From an uncultured Chloroflexia bacterium (GTDB lineage Bacteria; Chloroflexota; Chloroflexia; QHBQ01; JADMIH01), in NCBI GenBank assembly GCA_963797095.1, contig CAWCNY010000006.1, forward strand, positions 996,374-1,060,373: a stretch of 64,000 nucleotides of DNA, in the 5' to 3' direction. How positions within the stretch are numbered: the stretch's first letter is position 1; each line of letters opens with the position of its first letter. Below are positions 6,605 through 16,926 of the stretch, one piece after another. Made by a program: the position numbers and the translations under genes. The notes beneath the pieces are model-generated. The model was not told the origin of the DNA. It saw nothing but the letters and a program-made list of their open reading frames with translations, and did no database searches.

Positions 6605-8241
6605 TCACGCCGCTTGCTTCCTCACCGCTATCCCAGCCCTGGTCCTGGCTCCGACCCTGGCTCCAGCCCTGCGTTGTGCTGCCCGTGCTATCTGTGTATC
6701 AGCGATCTTCCCCAGGTTCGCTGTCACAATACCCCACCCTACCCTTCGCCACATCCCCTCCTCCTCGTGATCCCGACCTGTCTCCAGCCCGTAATCCCTC
6801 TTCAGCACCCAAATCCGCCCTTCGATCCCCGCTCGGAACCGGAACCCGCATCTGAACCAGCGCTGATGTTCCAGTGCCTGTCTCTCCTTGCTCACTCGCC
6901 CAGTGTGTGGCAACACAATCCGCTTCACCCCCAGTTGGCGTGCCAACGCCTCGTTCGCCCTCGAATAGGTGCCACGATCTCCAGCCAGCATGTCCGGTGG
7001 GTGCCCGAAACGCTCTTGATGTGTGGCTAAGCTTCTCGGCAGTTCCATCAGGTCCAAGCCCCCGCCCTCGTCCATCAATCGATACTCGCTGATGATCCCT
7101 CCCTCAACTTCCCCCAACCACACTTTGCGTCCGAATTCGGTTGGCTTGCCTGCCTTGTGACGCTGGATGACCTGGGTGTGCGGTTCAAACAGAGAGCGCA
7201 ACTTCTCGCCACTTCGAACCGCTATTAAGGATAACCCTGATACGGCTTATGATAGTTCAAACAGAGAGAGCAACTTCTCGCCACTTCGAACAGGTTCGCC
7301 CTGCAGCACTCGGCGTCGAGCCTGCTCTATCGCCTGCCCACCAGAGGCAGAAAGTGCTCCAACTGCTCGATGATGCGCCTTACCTGCCCCTGCCGTGCCC
7401 GGGTTGCAGAGTGCTCGGTAAGCTTGGCCCTGGAGAAGGTGTCGGCGAGGGTGGCGAGAGCATCGTGCACTTGATTCGCCTGCTTGGCAGTGGCCTGGGC
7501 GATACCCAGCAGCCTGGCATAGGCTGCCTTGAGTTGCTCGGCAGCCTCTTCCCCTTTGCGGCGGGCCACCCGATGAAGTTGTTGAGCGATACGCCGGACC
7601 GAGCGGGTACGGCTGCGAAATGCCCCTTTCAGGCCGCCCTTCAGGATGGTCGTCCCTATGGTCGTCCCTTCTCCCACTTCTCCCAGCTTTTCTCCCAGCA
7701 CGGTTTTGGCTTTGTGCAACAGCCGACTGAGCACACGAACTCCATCACCAACAATGGCGCTGTCTGTTGGATAATGGATATTGGTCTGCACAACGGTGCT
7801 GTCCACGCGCAGTTTGCGCCCCCTAGTCACCTTGAGTTGAGTGGCCAACTCCACTACTCGATCGTTGACCCTGGCAAGAGTATCCGGACCGACAAGGTTG
7901 GCCCATCGGATGAGAGTGGTATCGTCGGGGACGGGCTGGAGATAGAGGCGGCAGAACTGGCGTAAGACCAGGCTATCCGAGACGAAGTGTTCGGTTTGTT
8001 CGTAGCTCCAATCGTACAGGCGGCGAACGATGAGCATACGCAGGATCACCTCAACTGGGGTGGAGTGACGCCCCCTAACCAGGGTGTGAGGATAACGCTT
8101 AGCCAGGTCAGCCTTGACCTGCTCGAAGATCTCATCGTCTTTTAGCAACTGGTCCAACTCAGCTAGCTCCGGTTCCATCTCCAATTGCAACTTGGGCACC
8201 AGTTCAAAGAGGTTTACAGGGTCATATCGTTCGATTATCAC
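6605..8241 (-). pseudogene. IS5/ISNCY-family DDE transposase, inactivated
   Basis: DUF772-like N-term (GRHSTPVEVILRML, PDDTTLIRW); RVDSTVV, AGDRG, RAGIEG; 1-nt frameshift near 7340 and a 72-bp insertion with in-frame TAA. Confidence 0.88.
7183..7291. CRISPR. CRISPR-like repeat-spacer-repeat unit (37/35/37 bp) inside the transposase; no cas genes in window
   Basis: GTTCAAACAGAGAG(C/A)GCAACTTCTCGCCACTTCGAAC at 7183-7219 and 7255-7291 (1 mismatch); 35-bp spacer 7220-7254, 14/35 GC. The duplication is seen directly; CRISPR origin is inferred. Confidence 0.6.
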
Positions 8242-8612: not shown

Positions 8613-11054
8613 GTGTTTGAGTTTGATACAGCTATTTCCAGCGTTGTGGAGGTACAGGGGGAACTGCAACCACGATCTTCTGGCGAGCCAATTGAGGGAC
8701 CATTGTCGGCGGAGATGCTGGATAAGATGCAAAGGTACTGGCAGGCAGCTAACTACCTGACAGTTGGACAGATCTATTTGCAGACAAACCCTCTTTTGAG
8801 GGAGCAATTGAAGCCTGAGCATATCAAGCCACGGTTGCTGGGTCACTGGGGTACTTCGCCGGGGCTTAGCTTCATCTATGTGCATCTGAACCGGCTGATC
8901 AACGAGCATGATGCTAATGTGATCTACCTGGCGGGGCCGGGGCACGGAGGGCCTGCGATCGTCGCCAATGTGTACCTTGAGGGAACTTATTCGCAGATAT
9001 ATCAGGAGGTCACTCAGGACATGTCGGGGATGCGGCGGCTTTTCCGGCAATTCTCGACACCAGGTGGAATACCGAGCCATGTGAGCGTGACCACGCCCGG
9101 ATCAATTCACGAGGGGGGTGAGCTTGGGTATGTGCTGGCACACGCATTCGGGGCGGCGTTCGACAACCCCGACCTGATAGTGGCGGCTGTAGTGGGAGAT
9201 GGCGAGGCAGAGACCGGACCGTTGATGGCATCGTGGAGAGGGACTAGCTTCCTCAACCCGGCACGAGATGGGGCAGTGCTCCCGATCCTGCACCTGAACG
9301 GCTACAAGATCGGCGGGCCGACGGTACTAGGGCGCGACTCGGACGAGGATGTGCGTGCTACGATCGAGGGGAACGGATATGATGTGTATTTCGTGGAAGG
9401 CGATGAACCTGCCAGGATGCACCAGCAGTTCGCCGCCACCCTGGAGACGTGCTATGCACGCATTCGTGCTATCCAGGAGGACGCGCGGAAGAACGGTGTA
9501 AGCGGGCGGCCACGGTGGCCTGCTATTGTGCTGCGAACACCAAAGGGTTGGACCGGGCCGGCGGTGGTAGGTGGAATGCCGATTGAAGGAACGTTCCGAG
9601 CGCATCAGGTGCCGTTGAGCGACGTTCGGGGAGAGCCAAAGCAATTGGAGCAACTGGAAGAGTGGATGCGCAGCTACCAGCCTGATGATGTGTTTGATGT
9701 GAACGGGAAACTGATAGCAGAACTGGGCGCGCTTGCGCCGCGCGGGCTGAGACGGATGGGGTCCAATCCACACGCCAATGGAGGGAAACTGCTGGTAACA
9801 TTGCGAGTGCCTGACTTTCGCAAATACGCCCTGGAGGTGGCAAAACCTGCGACCGAGTGTGCCGAGTTGACGAGGCAACTGGGGAAGTTGATGCGGGACA
9901 TCTATGTACAAAACGCCCAGGATGCCAACTTCCGTCTCTTCTGCCCGGACGAAACCAACTCTAACCGCCTTGGCAACGTATTCGAGATAGAGAATCGCTG
10001 CTTCGTGGGCGAAACGATCTCGATTGACGATCATGTATCGCCCAATGGGCGGGTGATGGAGGTACTCAGCGAGCATCTTTGCGAAGGTTGGTTGGAGGGA
10101 TACTTGCTTACCGGGCGGCACGGCCTGTTCGCTACTTATGAAGCATTCTCGATGGTGTCGGCTTCGATGACGGTGCAGCATACAAAGTGGATGCAGGAGG
10201 CAATTGAGCTACCGTGGCGGGAGTTGATCGCGTCGTTGAATATCCTGTTGACTTCGACTTGCTGGCGGAACGACCACAACGGATTCAGCCATCAAGGGCC
10301 GGGGCTGATCGATGTGATGCTGTCGAAGCGGGGCACTGTAGCGCGCATCTACCTGCCGCCTGACGCGAATTGCCTGCTGTCGGTGGCAGATCATTGCTTC
10401 AGGAGTCGCAACTATGTGAACCTGATCGTGATCGACAAGCAGCCTCAGCTTCAGTGGCTCGACATGGACTCGGCTATAGAACACTGCGAGCGCGGGGCCT
10501 CGATATGGCATTGGGCGAGCAACGACAATGGTGAGGAGCCGGATGTGGTGCTGGCGTGCGCGGGTGATATCGTGACTATGGAGATCGTGGCGGCGGCGTG
10601 GTGGCTGCGGAAGAACATACCGGAACTGAAGGTGCGGGTGGTGAACGTTGTGGACCTGATGACGCTCTTTCCGCCTGCCTTCCACCCGCATGGTATGAAC
10701 GAAACTGACTTCGTGAATATGTTCACGGCGGATAAGGATGTAATCTTCGCTTTCCACGGGTACCAGCGGGCGATACACCAGATCATACATGGGCGGGCGA
10801 ACCCGGAACGCTTCCATGTTCGCGGATTCAACGAGCAAGGGACGACCACCACACCGTTCGATATGGTGGTGCTGAACAAGACAAGCCGGTATGACCTGGT
10901 GAACGATGTGGTGAATAACGTGCCCAAGATGCGGCAGCGCAGGCCGGAGATCAATGACATCTGCGACCAGTTGCTCGCCAGGGCAAAGGCGTATTCGCTT
11001 GAGCATCTTGAAGACCCGCCGGAGATCCGCGATTGGGTATGGACCGACGATTGA
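8613..11054 (+). CDS. xfp: Phosphoketolase (xylulose-5-P/fructose-6-P)
   Basis: [32 protein letters not shown] (ThDP), [17 protein letters not shown]. Confidence 0.96.
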
Positions 11055-11141: not shown

Positions 11142-12745
11142 TTAAGGGTGGGAGGGCTGGGAGAGGAGGGCCAAGCACTGGTCAAAGGGGTTGAGACCCT
11201 TAGCTCGCCAGGTGCCGAACAGGGTAGCCAACGTCATCCGGGTGGCTGATCCCTTGGGCGATTGACTACCACCCGATACCTTGCGCATCACCACCACAGG
11301 ACGGATTGACCGTTCCGCCAGGTTGTTGTCAGAGGATAAGGTGGGCACTATCACGAACTGGAATAACTCCTCCTGGTGGCGCAGCAGTCTCTTGCACAAG
11401 GTGTGGCATGGGTGCTTGCTCTTTGGGGGCCGTTACCGTTCTTGCCCCCGCCCCCGCCCCCGCCCCCGCCCCCGCCCCTGCCCTGTGGCCCTTGTTTGCC
11501 CCCGCCCTGTGGCCCGAACTCCTTGGCATCGGCATACTGCGCACCTAGCTTGGCAACCCCTTCCACCAACCGCCGGTACTCTCTTACACGCTGCTCCCAC
11601 TTGTGTGGCTCTTTTGTGGCTTCGTCTGCAGTGGGAGGGCCAAGTTCGTGTTCTTCCAACAGCTTATGGGCATCATCGTACAGTGCTCGCACTCCCCTGG
11701 CCCATTCATGCACTTCCTCGTTAGTGGGGTTGGTAGGGTTGGTAGGGTTGGTAGGGTTGGTAGGGTTGGTAGGGTTGATGGGGTTGATGGGGTGCTCCTC
11801 TTTCAGCTTATGCAAATCACGGAGCAGATGTGCCCAGCACCGCTGGTGCTCTCCTGGGAAGTCGTTGTAGCCACCGTAGAAGTCACTCGACATTACTTGA
11901 CCCTTTTCCCCAAAGTTAGACCCCATTATTCGTTTGGCTACCGCTCCCCCTCGGCTCTGGTCGTACTCGTACAATCGCTCTCCATCGGGCGTGAAGAAGC
12001 CCCAGATATAGCCGTTTTGTCCCCCTTCTCGCCAGGTGGTTTCGTCACCATGTACCACATGGCTATGGCTCCTTCGAACCCTCTTCTTTATGGAGGCAGC
12101 AGCCTCCTTCAGAGGTTCGGCTTGCACCATTCGATGCAACAACTCCACAACCTCACCCGAAGAGATGGTCAACTTGTGTATGGTGTACAGGTACTCTTTT
12201 ATGAGGAGGAGGGGCATCCTCAACGATGTGCGCAGATGAGCTATGAGGGAGGCGATACGCACCCCCATTCTGCCTTGCCCAATCACCTGACCTGTAAGGT
12301 CGACAGTGGGGTAGTGCCACCTCCCACAACGAGCACACCACCCCTTGAATAGCTGGTGCTCGGTGACTTGCACAGGAGGGGGTGGAGGGAGTTCTATCAC
12401 CTGGCGTCTGGAGGCGAGTTGGTGCTGACGAAGGGTGTAGCCACAATCGGGACACTGCTGCAGGTGGTGCTCAATTGTTGAGGTGGGCGATTGTTCACGG
12501 CGGCGGGCACCATTGTGCTCTTTAGCTCTGGGGCGTCTGGGAGGCTTTGGGGTGTTGTTCTTCTTGGGAGTGGAGGGCTTGACGAATGATGGGGCACCTG
12601 GCGAGCCAGAGCCAGAGGCTAGCTGTGTCTGCATCTGCTCCAACCTGGCTTCCAACTCGGCGATGCGCTCCAGAGCAAGGCGCAATTGCTCTTTGAGTTG
12701 TGCATTCTCTGCCCGCAGATGGGCTAGTTCTTCTTCCAGGTTCAT
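11142..12745 (-). pseudogene. IS66 TnpC transposase, frameshifted near 11417-11432
   Basis: N-terminal leucine zipper, CPDCG/CARC Zn finger, HGDETTW, QRCWAHLLR; C-terminal DNNLAERSIR in another frame. Confidence 0.85.
11720..11793. repeat. 9-bp tandem repeat encoding (NPT/NPI)n in the IS66 transposase
   Basis: About 8 copies of GTTGGTAGG/GTTGATGGG. Confidence 0.85.
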
Positions 12746-12809: not shown

Positions 12810-12838
12810 TTGCCGTGCGTGGGTTGTAGTGATATAAT
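12810..12838 (+). promoter_or_regulatory. Sigma70-type promoter of the aconitase fusion gene
   Basis: TTGCCG-17 bp-TATAAT with extended -10 TG. Confidence 0.6.
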
Positions 12839-12904
12839 ATTAGTTGGAATCAAAAGAGCCCGCTCCAAAAAGAAGCGAAAGAGCCAGAAGAGGAGTTCCT
12901 TGCA

Positions 12905-15790
12905 ATGCCGCGAAATATTGTCCAGAAGATCTTCGCAGCGCACCTGGTGTCCGGCGAGATGAGGCCGGGACGCGAGGTCGCCATTCATATTGACCAGACT
13001 CTAACGCAGGATGCCACGGGTACGATGTCGTACCTGCAATTTGAGGCGATGGGCATCCCACGGGTGCGCACAGATGTATCGGTGTCATATGTTGACCACA
13101 ACATGTTGCAGACCGGATTCGAGAACGCGGACGACCACCGCTTCTTGCAGTCTATCGCCTCCAAATATGGTATTTTCTTCTCGCGACCGGGTAACGGGAT
13201 CTGTCACCAGGTACATCTTGAGAGGTTCGCGGTGCCTGGCAAGACCCTATTGGGATCGGATAGCCATACGCCTACCTGCGGTGGGCTGGGCATGATCGCG
13301 ATTGGAGCGGGTGGTTTGGACGTGGCGGTAGCTATGGGCGGTGGGCCTTTCTATACAGCGATGCCCGAAGTTTGGTTGGTGAGGCTGATAGGCAAGCGGC
13401 AGCCGTGGGTAGCATCGAAGGACATCATTTTCGAGTTGTTGAGAAGACTGACCGTGAAGGGCGGGGTTGGCAAGATCATTGAGTATGGTGGGCCGGGAGT
13501 GGCAGATTTGTCGGTGCCTGAGCGCGGAACGATCACCAACATGGGCGCGGAATTGGGAGCTACCACCTCGATATTTCCCTCCGATCACAGGACGAAGGAG
13601 TACATGGAGGCCCAGGGGCGAGGCAAGGATTGGACTGAATTAAAGGCTGATGATGACACCGAGTACGACGGCGTGATCGAGATCGTGCTGGATGACCTGG
13701 AGCCAATGATATCTCGCCCTCATAGCCCCGACAGTGTTGTGCCTGTGCGAGAAGTGGCAGGAACGCCGGTCACTCAGGTGCTGGTTGGCAGTTGTACGAA
13801 TTCCTCGTTCGTGGATTTGCAGACTGTGGCTGGGGCGCTTAAGGGTAAGACGGTCAACCCCGGGCTTTCGTTCGGGGTGACGCCGGGGTCGCGCCAGGTG
13901 TTCACCATGATCGCGAGGTCAGGAGCGTTGGGCGACCTGATCGAGTCGGGGGCACGCATACTGGAGTCGGCCTGTGGGCCCTGTATTGGTATGGGGCAGG
14001 CTCCCGCGTCGGGAGCGGTGAGCGTAAGGTCGTTCAATCGCAACTTCGAGGGGCGGTCGGGAACGCCTAATGCACAGGTATTCCTGGCATCGCCTGAGAC
14101 GTGTGCGGCGACCGCCCTGACGGGTGTGATCACCGATCCGAGGGCCCTCGGTGAAAAGATCGAGGTAGATATACCGGAGCACTTCCTGATTGAAGACAAC
14201 ATGATCGTGCCGCCTGCAGAGAAGCCGGACACGGTTGAGGTGCTGCGTGGACCGAACATCAAGCCGCTGCCGATCAATAAGACCCTCCCTGCCAACCTGG
14301 CCGGGCAGGTGCTACTGAAAGTGGGCGACAACATCACGACCGATCATATCATGCCTGCGGGTGCGAAGATCCTGCCTCTGAGGTCGAACATACCGGCTAT
14401 TTCCGAGTATGTGTTCGAGAAAGTTGACCCGTCGTTCGCGACCAGGGCCAAGCAGCAAGGTGGTGGGTTCGTAGTAGGCGGTAGCAACTACGGCCAGGGC
14501 TCTAGCCGTGAGCACGCGGCGCTCGCGCCGATGTACCTGGGGGTGCGTGGCGTTATCACCAAGAGTTTTGCTCGTATCCACCGCGACAACCTGATCAACT
14601 TCGGCATAATTCCAATGACATTTGTGAACCCTGACGACTACGACAAGATCAATGAGCGCGATGAATTGCTGGTGGAGGATGTGCGAGACGACCTGTTGGA
14701 TGGCGATGAGTTCCTGACACTGATCAACCTGAGCAAGGGACACAGCTATCAGGTGAAGCATGGACTGACGATGCGTCAGATCAACATCATACTGGCGGGC
14801 GGGCTGCTGAACTATATCAGGGAGCATGGAGATGCGTCGAAGGTGGAGAGGGAGGCGACGGCGGCGGCTATAGGCTCGACGACGGCAATGCCTACCAGCA
14901 CAACCAAGACCACTGACTCGCCTGGCGCGACACCGAGGCCGCTGTCGAGGGCTGAGATATTCGACCAGATGGTGGTGGAGAGGGCGGAAAAGGCGGTCGA
15001 AGAGCATGACAGGCTGGGACACGGATTGCACGAGAAGACAGATGCGCGCTTCGCTGAATTGATTGCTCCAAGCAAAGGGGCGATATGCCTCGATATAGCA
15101 ACGGCCAGTGGCACGCTTGCACTTGCGCTCGCAGATAGGATCGGGCCGCAGGGACGCGTGGTAGCGATTGACCTGGCGCAGGGGATGCTAGACTACGCAG
15201 AGAGGAAAGCGCGTGCGCACAGGCTCAAGAACATCGAGTGGAAGCGGATGAACGCGCAGAACCTTGAGTTCGAGGATGACACGTTCGATGTGGTGGTTTG
15301 CAGTCTCGCGATCTTCTACTTCCCCGATATTCCGGGCGCAATGCATGAGATGCTGCGGGTGCTGAAGCCGGGTGGGAAATTGGGGATCACTACAGCGGAC
15401 CCGGAGACGGCGTTCTCGCCTTTGAGCCAGCCTTACATGGCGTCATTGAGGAAACTTGCGGAGGAGTTGAAGATCGACCAGCCTGCTTACTCAGATACAT
15501 CGAATGAGACGCGAGAGAAGGCTGGGCTGGCGAAGCTGGTGAAGGAGGCCGGGTTCAAGGACGTGGAGGTTATCGAGGAAAGCATCCCCGTGCGGTTCAC
15601 GTCGTTGGAGGATTGGTGGCAGTACGGTCGCGGGTCAACCTGGGGCGATCTGCTGCTGGACAGGTTATCACCGGACCAGAGGGTCGAATTCAGGAAGAAG
15701 CACGAGGACGAGATCAAGAAGCAGTTCGGCTCCGCAGGGATAAGGGCGGCTACGCCTATATTGTTTGCCCTGGGTAGGAAACCTGAGTAG
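12905..15790 (+). CDS. Aconitate hydratase fused to a C-terminal class I SAM methyltransferase
   Basis: QDATGT, GNGICHQ, GSDSHT, GSCTN, CGPCIG, TTDHIMP, NYGQGSSREHA (aa ~1-640); Ala/Thr linker; LDIATASG, IDLAQGML, FDVVVC, LRVLKPGG. Confidence 0.9.
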   Translation: MPRNIVQKIFAAHLVSGEMRPGREVAIHIDQTLTQDATGTMSYLQFEAMGIPRVRTDVSVSYVDHNMLQTGFENADDHRFLQSIASKYGIFFSRPGNGICHQVHLERFAVPGKTLLGSDSHTPTCGGLGMIAIGAGGLDVAVAMGGGPFYTAMPEVWLVRLIGKRQPWVASKDIIFELLRRLTVKGGVGKIIEYGGPGVADLSVPERGTITNMGAELGATTSIFPSDHRTKEYMEAQGRGKDWTELKADDDTEYDGVIEIVLDDLEPMISRPHSPDSVVPVREVAGTPVTQVLVGSCTNSSFVDLQTVAGALKGKTVNPGLSFGVTPGSRQVFTMIARSGALGDLIESGARILESACGPCIGMGQAPASGAVSVRSFNRNFEGRSGTPNAQVFLASPETCAATALTGVITDPRALGEKIEVDIPEHFLIEDNMIVPPAEKPDTVEVLRGPNIKPLPINKTLPANLAGQVLLKVGDNITTDHIMPAGAKILPLRSNIPAISEYVFEKVDPSFATRAKQQGGGFVVGGSNYGQGSSREHAALAPMYLGVRGVITKSFARIHRDNLINFGIIPMTFVNPDDYDKINERDELLVEDVRDDLLDGDEFLTLINLSKGHSYQVKHGLTMRQINIILAGGLLNYIREHGDASKVEREATAAAIGSTTAMPTSTTKTTDSPGATPRPLSRAEIFDQMVVERAEKAVEEHDRLGHGLHEKTDARFAELIAPSKGAICLDIATASGTLALALADRIGPQGRVVAIDLAQGMLDYAERKARAHRLKNIEWKRMNAQNLEFEDDTFDVVVCSLAIFYFPDIPGAMHEMLRVLKPGGKLGITTADPETAFSPLSQPYMASLRKLAEELKIDQPAYSDTSNETREKAGLAKLVKEAGFKDVEVIEESIPVRFTSLEDWWQYGRGSTWGDLLLDRLSPDQRVEFRKKHEDEIKKQFGSAGIRAATPILFALGRKPE

Positions 15791-15819: not shown

Positions 15820-15846
15820 GGGGCGGGGTTGAGACCCGCCCCTTTT
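15820..15846 (+). terminator. Intrinsic terminator
   Basis: GGGGCGGG-loop-CCCGCCCC followed by TTTT. Confidence 0.65.
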
Positions 15847-15879: not shown

Positions 15880-16926
15880 CTATTGATCGTTGTTGGTCTG
15901 GCCGCCCATGAGGCCGCCGAGAAGACCGCCCAGGTCACCGAGGCCGCCCTGGGGGTTTTGCTGCGCGGAATTGGGCTGACTGCCACCCAGGAGGCCGCCG
16001 AGGAGACCACCTACCCAGTCCATTGAGCCGCCGCTCTGCTGGCCTCCGCTTTGAGATCCCATCAGGCCACCGAGCAGACCGCCAATGTCGACGTTGCCAC
16101 CAGCGCCCTGTTGCTGATCGTCCAGTTGGGATTGGTTGCTGCCCATGAGGCCGCTCAGTAAGCCGCCGAGGTCCACGCTGCCACCGCTTTGTTGCTGGGA
16201 TTGGGACTGAGACTGGCTACCTGTGAGACCACCAAGGAGAGTGCCAAGGTCGCCCGCAAGACCGCCCTGGGGCTGAGTGGCGTAGTTGCTAGTATTATCG
16301 CCCTTGTTGAAGAGCATGGTGATCAGGCTGGGTGCGAGGGCTGTAATGATGCCGCCGATAACGTTGGTGGCTGAGGCCGCGCCGGGGTCGACCGTGCCCT
16401 GATTACCCGCAGTGCCCTGGGTGCCGGTGATGGCAGCCGAGAGGGATTGGAGGAGGCCGGCCTCGATCGGTTGGCCTGCCTTTTCGGCCTGGTTGAGGGC
16501 GTTGACGGCGGGGTGGATAGCATCGAGCATAGTGCCCTGGCCAGGCCTGGCCGGGTTGTTACTCTCGACGCCGCCGAGGAAAGATTGGAGGAACGGAAGA
16601 AGATTAGCGGAGGAGATAGACTGTTGTCCTTTGAAGTCGGCAGCGGCGTGTTCAAGGCCGTCGGCGTAGAAGGAGGCGGCTTTGCCTGTGCTTTGCTGGC
16701 GCATAGCCTGGGCGGCGGCCTGTAGTTGGACGCCCGCATCATTGCTGCCGGAGTTATGGGCAGCTTCAGCGGCGGCATTGAAGGCGGTGGCCATACGCTG
16801 GCCGTGTGTGCCCTTGTTGTCTACGCTGTTTAACTGATCCTGGGTTTGGGATAACTGCTGGGCGATTGAGGATAAGAGGGTTGGCACATCTACCTGACGT
16901 AGTTGGTCCATGTTTTGTCCGGCCAT
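15880..16926 (-). CDS. DAK2/DhaL-like domain protein with Gly/Gln-rich repetitive C-terminus
   Basis: LNSVD..GTHG, ARPGQGTMLDA, VDPGA motifs; repeated GGLLGGLMG tail. Confidence 0.7.
   Translation of the reverse strand: MAGQNMDQLRQVDVPTLLSSIAQQLSQTQDQLNSVDNKGTHGQRMATAFNAAAEAAHNSGSNDAGVQLQAAAQAMRQQSTGKAASFYADGLEHAAADFKGQQSISSANLLPFLQSFLGGVESNNPARPGQGTMLDAIHPAVNALNQAEKAGQPIEAGLLQSLSAAITGTQGTAGNQGTVDPGAASATNVIGGIITALAPSLITMLFNKGDNTSNYATQPQGGLAGDLGTLLGGLTGSQSQSQSQQQSGGSVDLGGLLSGLMGSNQSQLDDQQQGAGGNVDIGGLLGGLMGSQSGGQQSGGSMDWVGGLLGGLLGGSQPNSAQQNPQGGLGDLGGLLGGLMGGQTNNDQ

Follow-up and report, generated by a model that had tools for sequence, protein, structure and literature searches.

Among the enzymes of central metabolism, aconitase is universal, and we know of no described aconitase form that carries a methyltransferase. 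Full-text literature searches for an aconitase-methyltransferase fusion yielded no description of one; aconitase is mentioned in the available part of PMC11237513 solely as a fusion of its own subunits. Among the described systems that come closest are two methyltransferases, Tam and Tmt1. According to the available part of PMC6320622, both act on trans-aconitate, an aconitase inhibitor that forms spontaneously, and they are only weakly similar to each other; yeast Tmt1, a trans-aconitate 3-methyltransferase with 3-isopropylmalate as its main substrate, shows that a class I methyltransferase outside Tam can esterify trans-aconitate as well as an intermediate from the pathway step of an aconitase-family enzyme. 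Tam itself (E. coli; A. tumefaciens structure 2p35) is a stand-alone class I SAM methyltransferase with a cap.

The window analysed here is a stretch of 64,000 nucleotides from an uncultured Chloroflexia bacterium (GenBank assembly GCA_963797095.1, contig CAWCNY010000006.1). According to the ORF list and its translation, positions 12905..15790 of the forward strand form a single uninterrupted frame of 961 aa with no internal stop (stop codon, 15788..15790). The encoded protein consists, in this order, of an aconitase module of the PRK07229/TIGR01342 type with its swivel domain (residues 1-640; 12905..14824, + strand; assigned with Pfam and NCBIfam), a conserved, fusion-specific connecting segment of 37 residues (641-677; 14825..14935, + strand; alignments and dN/dS), and a class I SAM-dependent methyltransferase module (678-961; 14936..15787, + strand; profiles, fold model and dN/dS). 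The aconitase-methyltransferase fusion described in the initial annotation is thus real, both domains scoring above the Pfam cut-offs within one frame, and the connecting segment is indeed rich in Thr and Ala, as well as in Ser and Pro. The putative signals agree with the single promoter and single terminator proposed there, since the candidates only flank the whole gene: a sigma-70-like promoter candidate (12810..12838, + strand; TTGCCG, 17 nt, TATAAT, with TG; 10 of 12 matches, by pattern match only), a Shine-Dalgarno-like GAGGAG (12890..12895, + strand) 9 nt upstream of the ATG at 12905, and an intrinsic-terminator-like hairpin of 8 G-C pairs followed by a T run (15820..15842, + strand; pattern match). 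No promoter-like site comparable to that at 12810-12838 was found ahead of the methyltransferase part, and the linker Met (Met662) has no Shine-Dalgarno-like motif upstream, as had been noted. The gene is monocistronic, and pathway partners are absent among its neighbours.

The aconitase half was found to be complete. The score was 366 bits with Pfam Aconitase (cut-off, 28.7) and 78 bits with Aconitase_C (residues 514-575), and over residues 1-641 it exceeded the NCBIfam cut-offs of both NF005558, aconitate hydratase (989.1 bits; cut-off, 612), and TIGR01342 (945.9 bits; cut-off, 719), in line with the aconitase of about 640 aa with three Cys and a swivel domain that had been read from the frame. 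C297, C357 and C360, which we take to be the ligands of the 4Fe-4S cluster, and S533 and R535 with the GQGSSRE stretch, presumably the catalytic Ser/Arg region, do not vary among the 48 aconitases, fused and unfused, that were aligned. When the genome (93% complete) was searched with PF00330, the fused gene and a LeuC-like frame of 437 aa were found and nothing else; one citrate synthase gene and one ICDH-like gene are also present. AcnA occurs in 14 of 14 sister-family genomes and in 0 of the 26 genomes of the genus, in which the fused aconitase stands in for it. As the sole aconitase in the genome, with intact catalytic residues and in the place of the AcnA of the sister families, the N-terminal 640 residues are well supported by these sequence comparisons as the housekeeping aconitase (citrate to isocitrate). 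The unfused PRK07229/TIGR01342 aconitate hydratases (approximately 640-670 aa) share 64-72% identity with residues 1-640 and agree with them in the catalytic and Cys residues and in the four-domain layout; most of them end approximately 2-12 residues past the GGLLNY motif, and those of FCPU426, L056, L060 and L079 have longer tails that are unrelated to the segment of the fused protein. Both the conserved segment and the methyltransferase are absent from every unfused homologue compared.

Both domains were found in one stop-free frame of 967-1024 aa in 20 of the 26 species-level genomes of the genus; in five the frame is interrupted by contig ends, and one genome, 77% complete, gave no match. 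At least 40 protein clusters (90% identity) with both domains were counted when the 8000 candidates sharing the most words were scored. The fused clade is monophyletic in the tree (13 of 13 tips, support 1.0), which shows a single origin of the fusion. The median dN/dS over 105 pairs was 0.069 for the aconitase, 0.151 for the linker and 0.177 for the methyltransferase module; each of the three parts is under purifying selection. The initial annotation had asked for conservation in relatives and had allowed that two separate genes there would point to a stop loss or a sequencing error. The 20 complete frames come from independent assemblies and none is split by a stop; since the fusion is genuine, extends across the genus and is kept by purifying selection, these two explanations are excluded.

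It is highly improbable, more generally, that the locus yields two separate proteins, by an internal start at Met689 or by cleavage of the linker, or that it is an assembly or stop-loss artefact. Methyltransferases of 272-287 aa that start within the frame are listed in NCBI records (one of 273 aa starts at the internal ATG of Met689, 14969..14971, + strand), and GAGGG, the only Shine-Dalgarno-like motif there, lies 17 nt upstream of the Met689 codon. However, Met689 is replaced by L, K or R and Met662 by L or V in many orthologues, no promoter-like site precedes the methyltransferase part, as described above, and purifying selection acts on the junction at the peptide level. NCBI records often break the fused gene at an internal Met that is not conserved, so that public annotation partly conceals the architecture.

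Two candidates for a split form were considered and rejected. The unfused paralogues of G012 and G014 are a distant outgroup (53-54% identical) and lie in a cluster with a TPP-enzyme and a dehydrogenase. A methyltransferase neighbours the aconitase in 3 of 64 unfused loci, all of one lineage (three of the four FCPU426 loci, with an aconitase of the same type followed by a class I methyltransferase on the same strand); this methyltransferase belongs to a different, generic subfamily, matching in the SAM core alone (32-36% identity), so that it is not an independent split form. The adjacency is no more than a weak hint for the reading preferred below, against which the rarity of such neighbours among the 64 loci counts.

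The connecting segment had been described as an Ala/Thr linker in the initial annotation, which overlooked that it is a conserved element of fixed length in its own right. In 45 sequences it shows no length variation, and its invariant fraction is 0.405 vs 0.208 in the methyltransferase; the conservation of K668 is at least 90%. An RNA element in the junction was ruled out, since the synonymous divergence (pS 0.61) is the same as in the flanks; together with the dN/dS of the linker (0.15), this places the constraint on the peptide and not on the RNA. The 45-residue junction peptide gave no match to PDB sequences up to E 10. Residues 663-680 form beta bridges in the fold model at a pLDDT of 56-60, and, to judge from the model, they may pack on the methyltransferase. 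The full-length AlphaFold model, built with 30 close orthologues, is poor (pLDDT 57.5; about 25 in the aconitase part) and therefore says nothing on the domain arrangement or the linker, and the complex prediction of the two halves with SAM (ipSAE 0.00 in two runs, controls absent) is no evidence either way.

The strong conservation of this indel-free segment, above that of the methyltransferase, together with that of K668, would also fit a protein methyltransferase acting on the enzyme itself (for example, on Lys668 or another residue of the segment) or on a partner protein, and the list of fold matches includes LahSb, which methylates peptide C-termini (Z 22.5). We consider this explanation improbable: the matches to PrmA and PCMT are weak and generic, nothing points specifically toward such families, and part of the segment (residues 663-680) may do no more than pack on the methyltransferase.

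The methyltransferase half has 284 residues (about 270 had been estimated) and is of class I by Pfam, with scores over residues 705-888 that all exceed the respective cut-offs (Ubie_methyltran, 95.5 bits; Methyltransf_25, 82.9 bits; Methyltransf_11, 76.7 bits), the fold being supported by a model of high confidence (pLDDT 87.8). Its layout comprises a UbiE-like N-terminal lid, a Rossmann core and a C-terminal cap. In the SAM core, D730, D756, F794-D795 and RVLKPGG are invariant and G736 is conserved; motif I reads A-T-A-S-G, with a single Gly, in the protein of the window vs A-T-G-T-G in many orthologues. From sequence and model, the module looks catalytically competent. The degenerate motif I, which also counts against the reading preferred below, and the fixed length of the tether would both suit a SAM/SAH sensor, with little or no catalysis, that allosterically regulates the aconitase and so ties the citric-acid cycle to the methyl-group status. 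Such a sensor seems quite improbable to us, because the canonical G-x-G is kept in many orthologues and the invariant residues extend beyond the SAM site, across the substrate-binding lid and the cap.

The nearest relatives, among the best 150 listed, are stand-alone UbiE-like methyltransferases of about 275 aa from metagenomes (P0162-P0308), which are uncharacterised. They are 33-39% identical to the fused module, cap included, and share with it the SAM core and a WW motif, but they have neither the 37-residue segment nor the pocket residues specific to the fused clade. This family is the likely source of the fused methyltransferase, as judged by sequence. The elements GHGL.EK, Y805, PLS..Y, P.Y, TR and GRGSTWG are invariant in the fused clade and missing from 62 stand-alone relatives; they contribute R870, R909, K711 and H706. 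They map to the lid, to the segments that follow beta4 and beta5, and to the cap, the parts of a class I methyltransferase that make up its substrate site. On this comparison, the substrate pocket appears to have been remodelled after the fusion, with a gain of invariant cationic residues.

The fused methyltransferase proved by sequence to be neither Tam nor MenG/UbiE. The Tam models NF002463 and NF010703 (cut-offs, 297 and 320 bits) are not among its best 25 NCBIfam families, the weakest of which scored 31.2 bits; the BLASTP alignment with E. coli Tam covered 103 residues of the SAM core at 21% identity (27 bits), and E. coli Tam did not match the module when compared with the genome, which argues that it is not a Tam-family member. 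Structurally, 2p35 can be superposed on it (Z 20.9, rmsd 2.9, 236 of 240 residues; 24th among the matches listed), and the identity to Tam, 13-21%, is limited to the SAM core. Tmt1 is not among the 50 fold matches listed, which excludes nothing. With the MenG/UbiE models the module scored well below the cut-offs (TIGR01934, 94-95 bits, cut-off 158.35; NF001244, 96 bits, cut-off 216).

A more serious alternative, although in our judgement still unlikely, is that the module methylates a small molecule unrelated to aconitase (quinone-like, a thiol or a secondary metabolite), and that the fusion couples its expression or stability to an abundant enzyme. The top-scoring sequence families are the quinone C-methyltransferases (UbiE/MenG) and ArsM-like enzymes, and the best fold matches listed (Z up to 25.7) are OxaG, RoqN, GtmA and TmtA. 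These fungal enzymes, which methylate natural products at S, O or N (thiols in the case of GtmA/TmtA), and Coq5/UbiE have Z scores of 24-26 over 206-264 aligned residues and the UbiE-like lid in common with the module; they are 17-21% identical to it among the matches listed, and act on hydrophobic compounds (natural products or quinones). The WW motif common to the module and its stand-alone relatives suggests an aromatic pocket, and the monocistronic gene without pathway partners nearby fits as well. On the other hand, a true MenG is encoded elsewhere in the genome (G000:C6:870087-870749; 220.7 bits, cut-off 158), compared with 95 bits for the fused module. In the lid and cap, the fused clade has invariant Arg, Lys and His residues that set it apart from GtmA, TmtA, OxaG, RoqN and Coq5, and the apparent remodelling of the pocket after the fusion, with the cationic residues gained, speaks against a substrate of this kind. 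Nor would a conserved tether of fixed length be expected if the fusion served expression alone.

We therefore prefer, tentatively and at somewhat less than an even chance, a bifunctional enzyme in which the methyltransferase converts an anionic metabolite from the aconitase reaction, for example, trans-aconitate, into an ester; that the module is catalytic, the class of its substrate and any advantage of its proximity are what we infer. One gene would give one bifunctional protein. The methyltransferase would have been recruited once, at the base of the genus, from the stand-alone UbiE-like family of about 275 aa, and its substrate pocket would have been remodelled following the recruitment; the conserved 37-residue segment of fixed length would tether it to the aconitase. 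It would then O-methylate a small anionic metabolite arising at, or inhibiting, aconitase, the leading candidate being trans-aconitate, to which released cis-aconitate gives rise, or a related tricarboxylate. In this way, the inhibitor would be esterified at its place of formation, in the manner of Tam and Tmt1, by a member of neither family.

A built-in Tam-like repair module had been proposed for this locus before. The clade-invariant Arg, Lys and His of the pocket and the precedent of Tam and Tmt1 are in its favour, whereas the module lies outside the Tam family, and the genome has a Tam-like gene of its own elsewhere (37% identity to E. coli Tam, 201 bits), which leaves no obvious need for a second enzyme that esterifies trans-aconitate. 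This Tam-like gene is found in 8 of the 26 genomes of the genus vs 11 of the 14 sister-family genomes; its rarity in the genus is a weak hint for the trans-aconitate reading, the genomes being kin and not independent. Metabolite repair would remain the most attractive idea for the fused methyltransferase. More speculatively, and rather doubtfully, this would be the first case of a damage-control enzyme covalently built into the central enzyme that it protects, the remodelled, tether-held methyltransferase esterifying trans-aconitate or another tricarboxylate by-product on its way out of the aconitase; the conserved tether might serve for docking or gating and so hold the two active sites in position. 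If this is true, the citric-acid cycle of these soil Chloroflexia would be self-clearing and sensitive to the SAM supply.

The whole genus gave up AcnA for the fused form, and thus the added module matters to a housekeeping function. If the substrate is trans-aconitate or an acid related to it, the fusion would serve as a naturally occurring Rosetta stone for metabolite repair and point to a third, independent origin of tricarboxylate methylation; if the substrate is something else, or the protein itself, it would be a new connection between SAM and the citric-acid cycle. The conserved pairing in these uncultured soil bacteria may protect or tune a central metabolic step.

The fused gene (window 12905..15790, + strand) is a single 961-aa open frame, in which Pfam matches above the cut-offs place Aconitase and Aconitase_C at residues 7-575 and a number of class I methyltransferase models at residues 705-888. 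With NCBIfam, residues 1-641 were assigned to the PRK07229-type aconitate hydratases (NF005558, 989 bits against a cut-off of 612; TIGR01342, 946 bits); residues 641-677, between both modules, are rich in Thr, Ala, Ser and Pro. A promoter-like site (12810-12838) lies upstream, GAGGAG is located 9 nt 5' of the start codon, and a strong hairpin of terminator type (15820-15842) follows; ahead of the methyltransferase part, no comparable promoter-like or ribosome-binding signal was found. Because the open frame, the domain matches, the Thr/Ala-rich junction and the flanking signals were all found, the initial annotation (an uninterrupted aconitase-methyltransferase frame with one promoter and one terminator) was correct.

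The fusion is not an artefact. The genus is represented by 26 genomes at species level (this genome, G000, with G001-G024 and G041). In 20 of them, six-frame searches found both modules in one uninterrupted 967-1024-aa frame, or in 18 of 23 without the unpublished G016, G021 and G022; contig ends cut the gene in five genomes (G006, G008, G010, G016 and G019), and the six-frame search did not find it in G011 (77% complete). A collection of 5.8 billion proteins gave 40 clusters at 90% identity (methyltransferase part, 57-100% identical), all with aconitase domains. The records that carry a name are MAGs of soil type, entered as Chloroflexia bacterium or Chloroflexota bacterium. The median dN/dS (Nei-Gojobori, 105 pairs, 15 genes) was 0.069 for the aconitase, 0.151 for the connecting segment and 0.177 for the methyltransferase, which indicates purifying selection; two separate genes in relatives, the alternative raised at first, were not encountered. 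NCBI records do hold 272-287-aa "class I SAM-dependent methyltransferase" proteins, and on the contigs of loci L013, L014 and L016 and of genome G018 these (P0043, P0044, P0049 and P0045) are separate CDSs with an internal start in an uninterrupted frame; at least one of them, P0043, coincides exactly with the last 273 residues of the unbroken L013 frame, from Met689. Many orthologues have L, K or R in place of Met689, and some have L or V in place of Met662; internal initiation is thus not a conserved feature, and it would be very improbable that two products are made separately or that the frame is an artefact. The JGI label for the whole fused protein is just "aconitate hydratase". The initial annotation knew of no described example, and full-text searches of freely accessible articles likewise turned up no aconitase-methyltransferase fusion; PMC11237513 concerns a fusion of aconitase subunits only. 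We rate the protein as a new architecture from two known domains.

The aconitase half is predicted to be the housekeeping enzyme. In this genome (93% complete), PF00330 matched only the fused gene and a 437-aa LeuC-like frame. One citrate synthase gene and one Iso_dh-family gene (G000:C2:811035-812081; L098:124-1206) were found; the latter is isocitrate-dehydrogenase-like in its best models, yet below every curated cut-off. No monomeric IDH was found in the genome, and PF00180 detected no separate LeuB, though the LeuC-like gene exists. AcnA (TIGR01341, E <= 1e-100) was found in all 14 genomes of the two sister families (one, G032, unpublished) versus 0 of 26 in the genus. In a phylogeny built from 50 aconitase domains, the fused proteins formed a single clade (all 13 tips, support 1.0), nested among unfused aconitases of other phyla (64-72% identical), with two unfused aconitases (L056 and L060) as its sister. 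The AcnA pattern and the single clade show that the genus ancestor replaced AcnA by a short aconitase, to which a methyltransferase was added once. The L056 and L060 proteins carry 35-50-residue Gly/Ala-rich C-terminal tails, unrelated to the connecting segment, with a common terminal TGGAGATGG motif. Two genomes of the genus also have a second, unfused, divergent aconitase-family paralogue (L096:3995-6031 in G012 and L097:3906-6011 in G014; 53-54% identity) adjoining a TPP-dependent enzyme; the G012 copy is further accompanied by an aldehyde dehydrogenase and a short-chain dehydrogenase. This may be an accessory catabolic cluster.

The neighbouring genes do not help with the function of the methyltransferase. 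The fused gene is monocistronic and, in 6 of 6 loci examined, convergent with genes for a DAK2-domain protein (window 15880..16926, - strand; also L015, L016, L020, L024 and L027) and aspartyl-tRNA synthetase; the former, which sits between the other two, has a long Gly/Gln/Ser-rich C-terminal tail. The upstream genes vary among these six loci. Directly upstream in the window is an IS66-family transposase ORF (11351..12745, - strand; DDE_Tnp_IS66, zf-IS66), which looks like a local insertion because IMPDH or other genes take this place in orthologous loci; close to its C-terminus it shows a tandem PTN/PIN repeat and a stretch of poly-Gly. Farther upstream are a full-length phosphoketolase (8613..11051, + strand; XFP_N, XFP, XFP_C) and an adjoining DUF772 transposase fragment (7330..8241). 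In 3 of 4 loci of the candidate division FCPU426, a 259-261-aa class I methyltransferase (L052:8055-8840, L063:8324-9103 and L085:7145-7927) lies 54-344 nt downstream of an aconitase of the same type and shares its strand; this methyltransferase belongs to a different subfamily from the fused module. Among the 64 unfused aconitase loci, no others had a neighbouring methyltransferase. These FCPU426 aconitases end in Lys/Ala-rich tails.

The connecting segment is, by its sequence conservation, evidently not a floppy linker. Among 45 distinct fused sequences it had no insertions or deletions, and its invariant fraction, 0.405, lay between those of the methyltransferase (0.208) and the aconitase (0.592); since its synonymous divergence equals that of the flanks, the constraint acts on the peptide. 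Unfused aconitase homologues do not have the segment, mostly stopping about 2-12 residues past the GGLLNY motif, and it matched no PDB sequence. Modelled with the methyltransferase alone, residues 641-662 had pLDDT <50 and residues 663-680 about 56-60. Self-methylation or protein methylation involving this conserved segment would be improbable.

For relatives of the methyltransferase, 1.84 billion representatives were scanned exhaustively with HMMER. Among the best 150 matches listed there were, besides fusion fragments, only stand-alone proteins of about 275 aa, uncharacterised and "UbiE-like", the nearest 33-39% identical over the entire methyltransferase including the cap; their alignments omit the connecting segment, save two partial ones that begin at residues 11 and 34 of the query. 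The SAM core and WW motif are common to the fused clade and 62 stand-alone relatives. Invariant in the fused clade and not in these relatives are GHGL.EK (705-711), Y805, PLS..Y (839-844), P.Y (860-862), TR (869-870) and GRGSTWG (908-914), segments which we take, from the known class I layout, to be the substrate site. The fused clade has thereby gained invariant Arg870, Arg909, Lys711 and His706, which would suit an anionic substrate.

The module was modelled confidently (pLDDT 87.8, pTM 0.84); the top fold matches were OxaG, RoqN, GtmA and TmtA (Z 24.9-25.7), with Coq5 at Z 24.0, whereas Tam of A. tumefaciens (2p35) ranked 24th (Z 20.9, 236/240 residues aligned, 13% identity). The nearest models by sequence were UbiE/MenG (94-96 bits against cut-offs of 158 and 216), and a true MenG (220.7 bits) is encoded elsewhere in the genome. 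Identity of the module with Tam was rejected, since Tam models were absent from its 25 best NCBIfam families and BLASTP gave 21% identity to E. coli Tam over 103 residues. The genome also encodes a distinct Tam-like protein with 37% identity to the E. coli enzyme (best family NF002463, 201 bits, under the cut-off of 297); its gene lies directly downstream of mnmA (G000:C7:181121-181828; L094:2622-3380) and was found in 8 of 26 genus genomes versus 11 of 14 sister-family genomes. Its presence alongside the fusion speaks against simple equivalence, and its frequent loss would fit partial redundancy; because kin are not independent, this distribution is equivocal. According to PMC6320622, trans-aconitate, which forms spontaneously and inhibits aconitase, is methylated by both Tam and Tmt1, and 3-isopropylmalate is a further substrate of Tmt1; the two enzymes resemble each other only weakly, so that trans-aconitate methylation has arisen in different class I lineages. 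Among the readings of the fused module, we consider an unrelated small-molecule substrate unlikely and SAM sensing distinctly improbable. We tentatively favour a methyltransferase that would esterify a small acidic metabolite associated with aconitase catalysis, with trans-aconitate as the leading candidate substrate.
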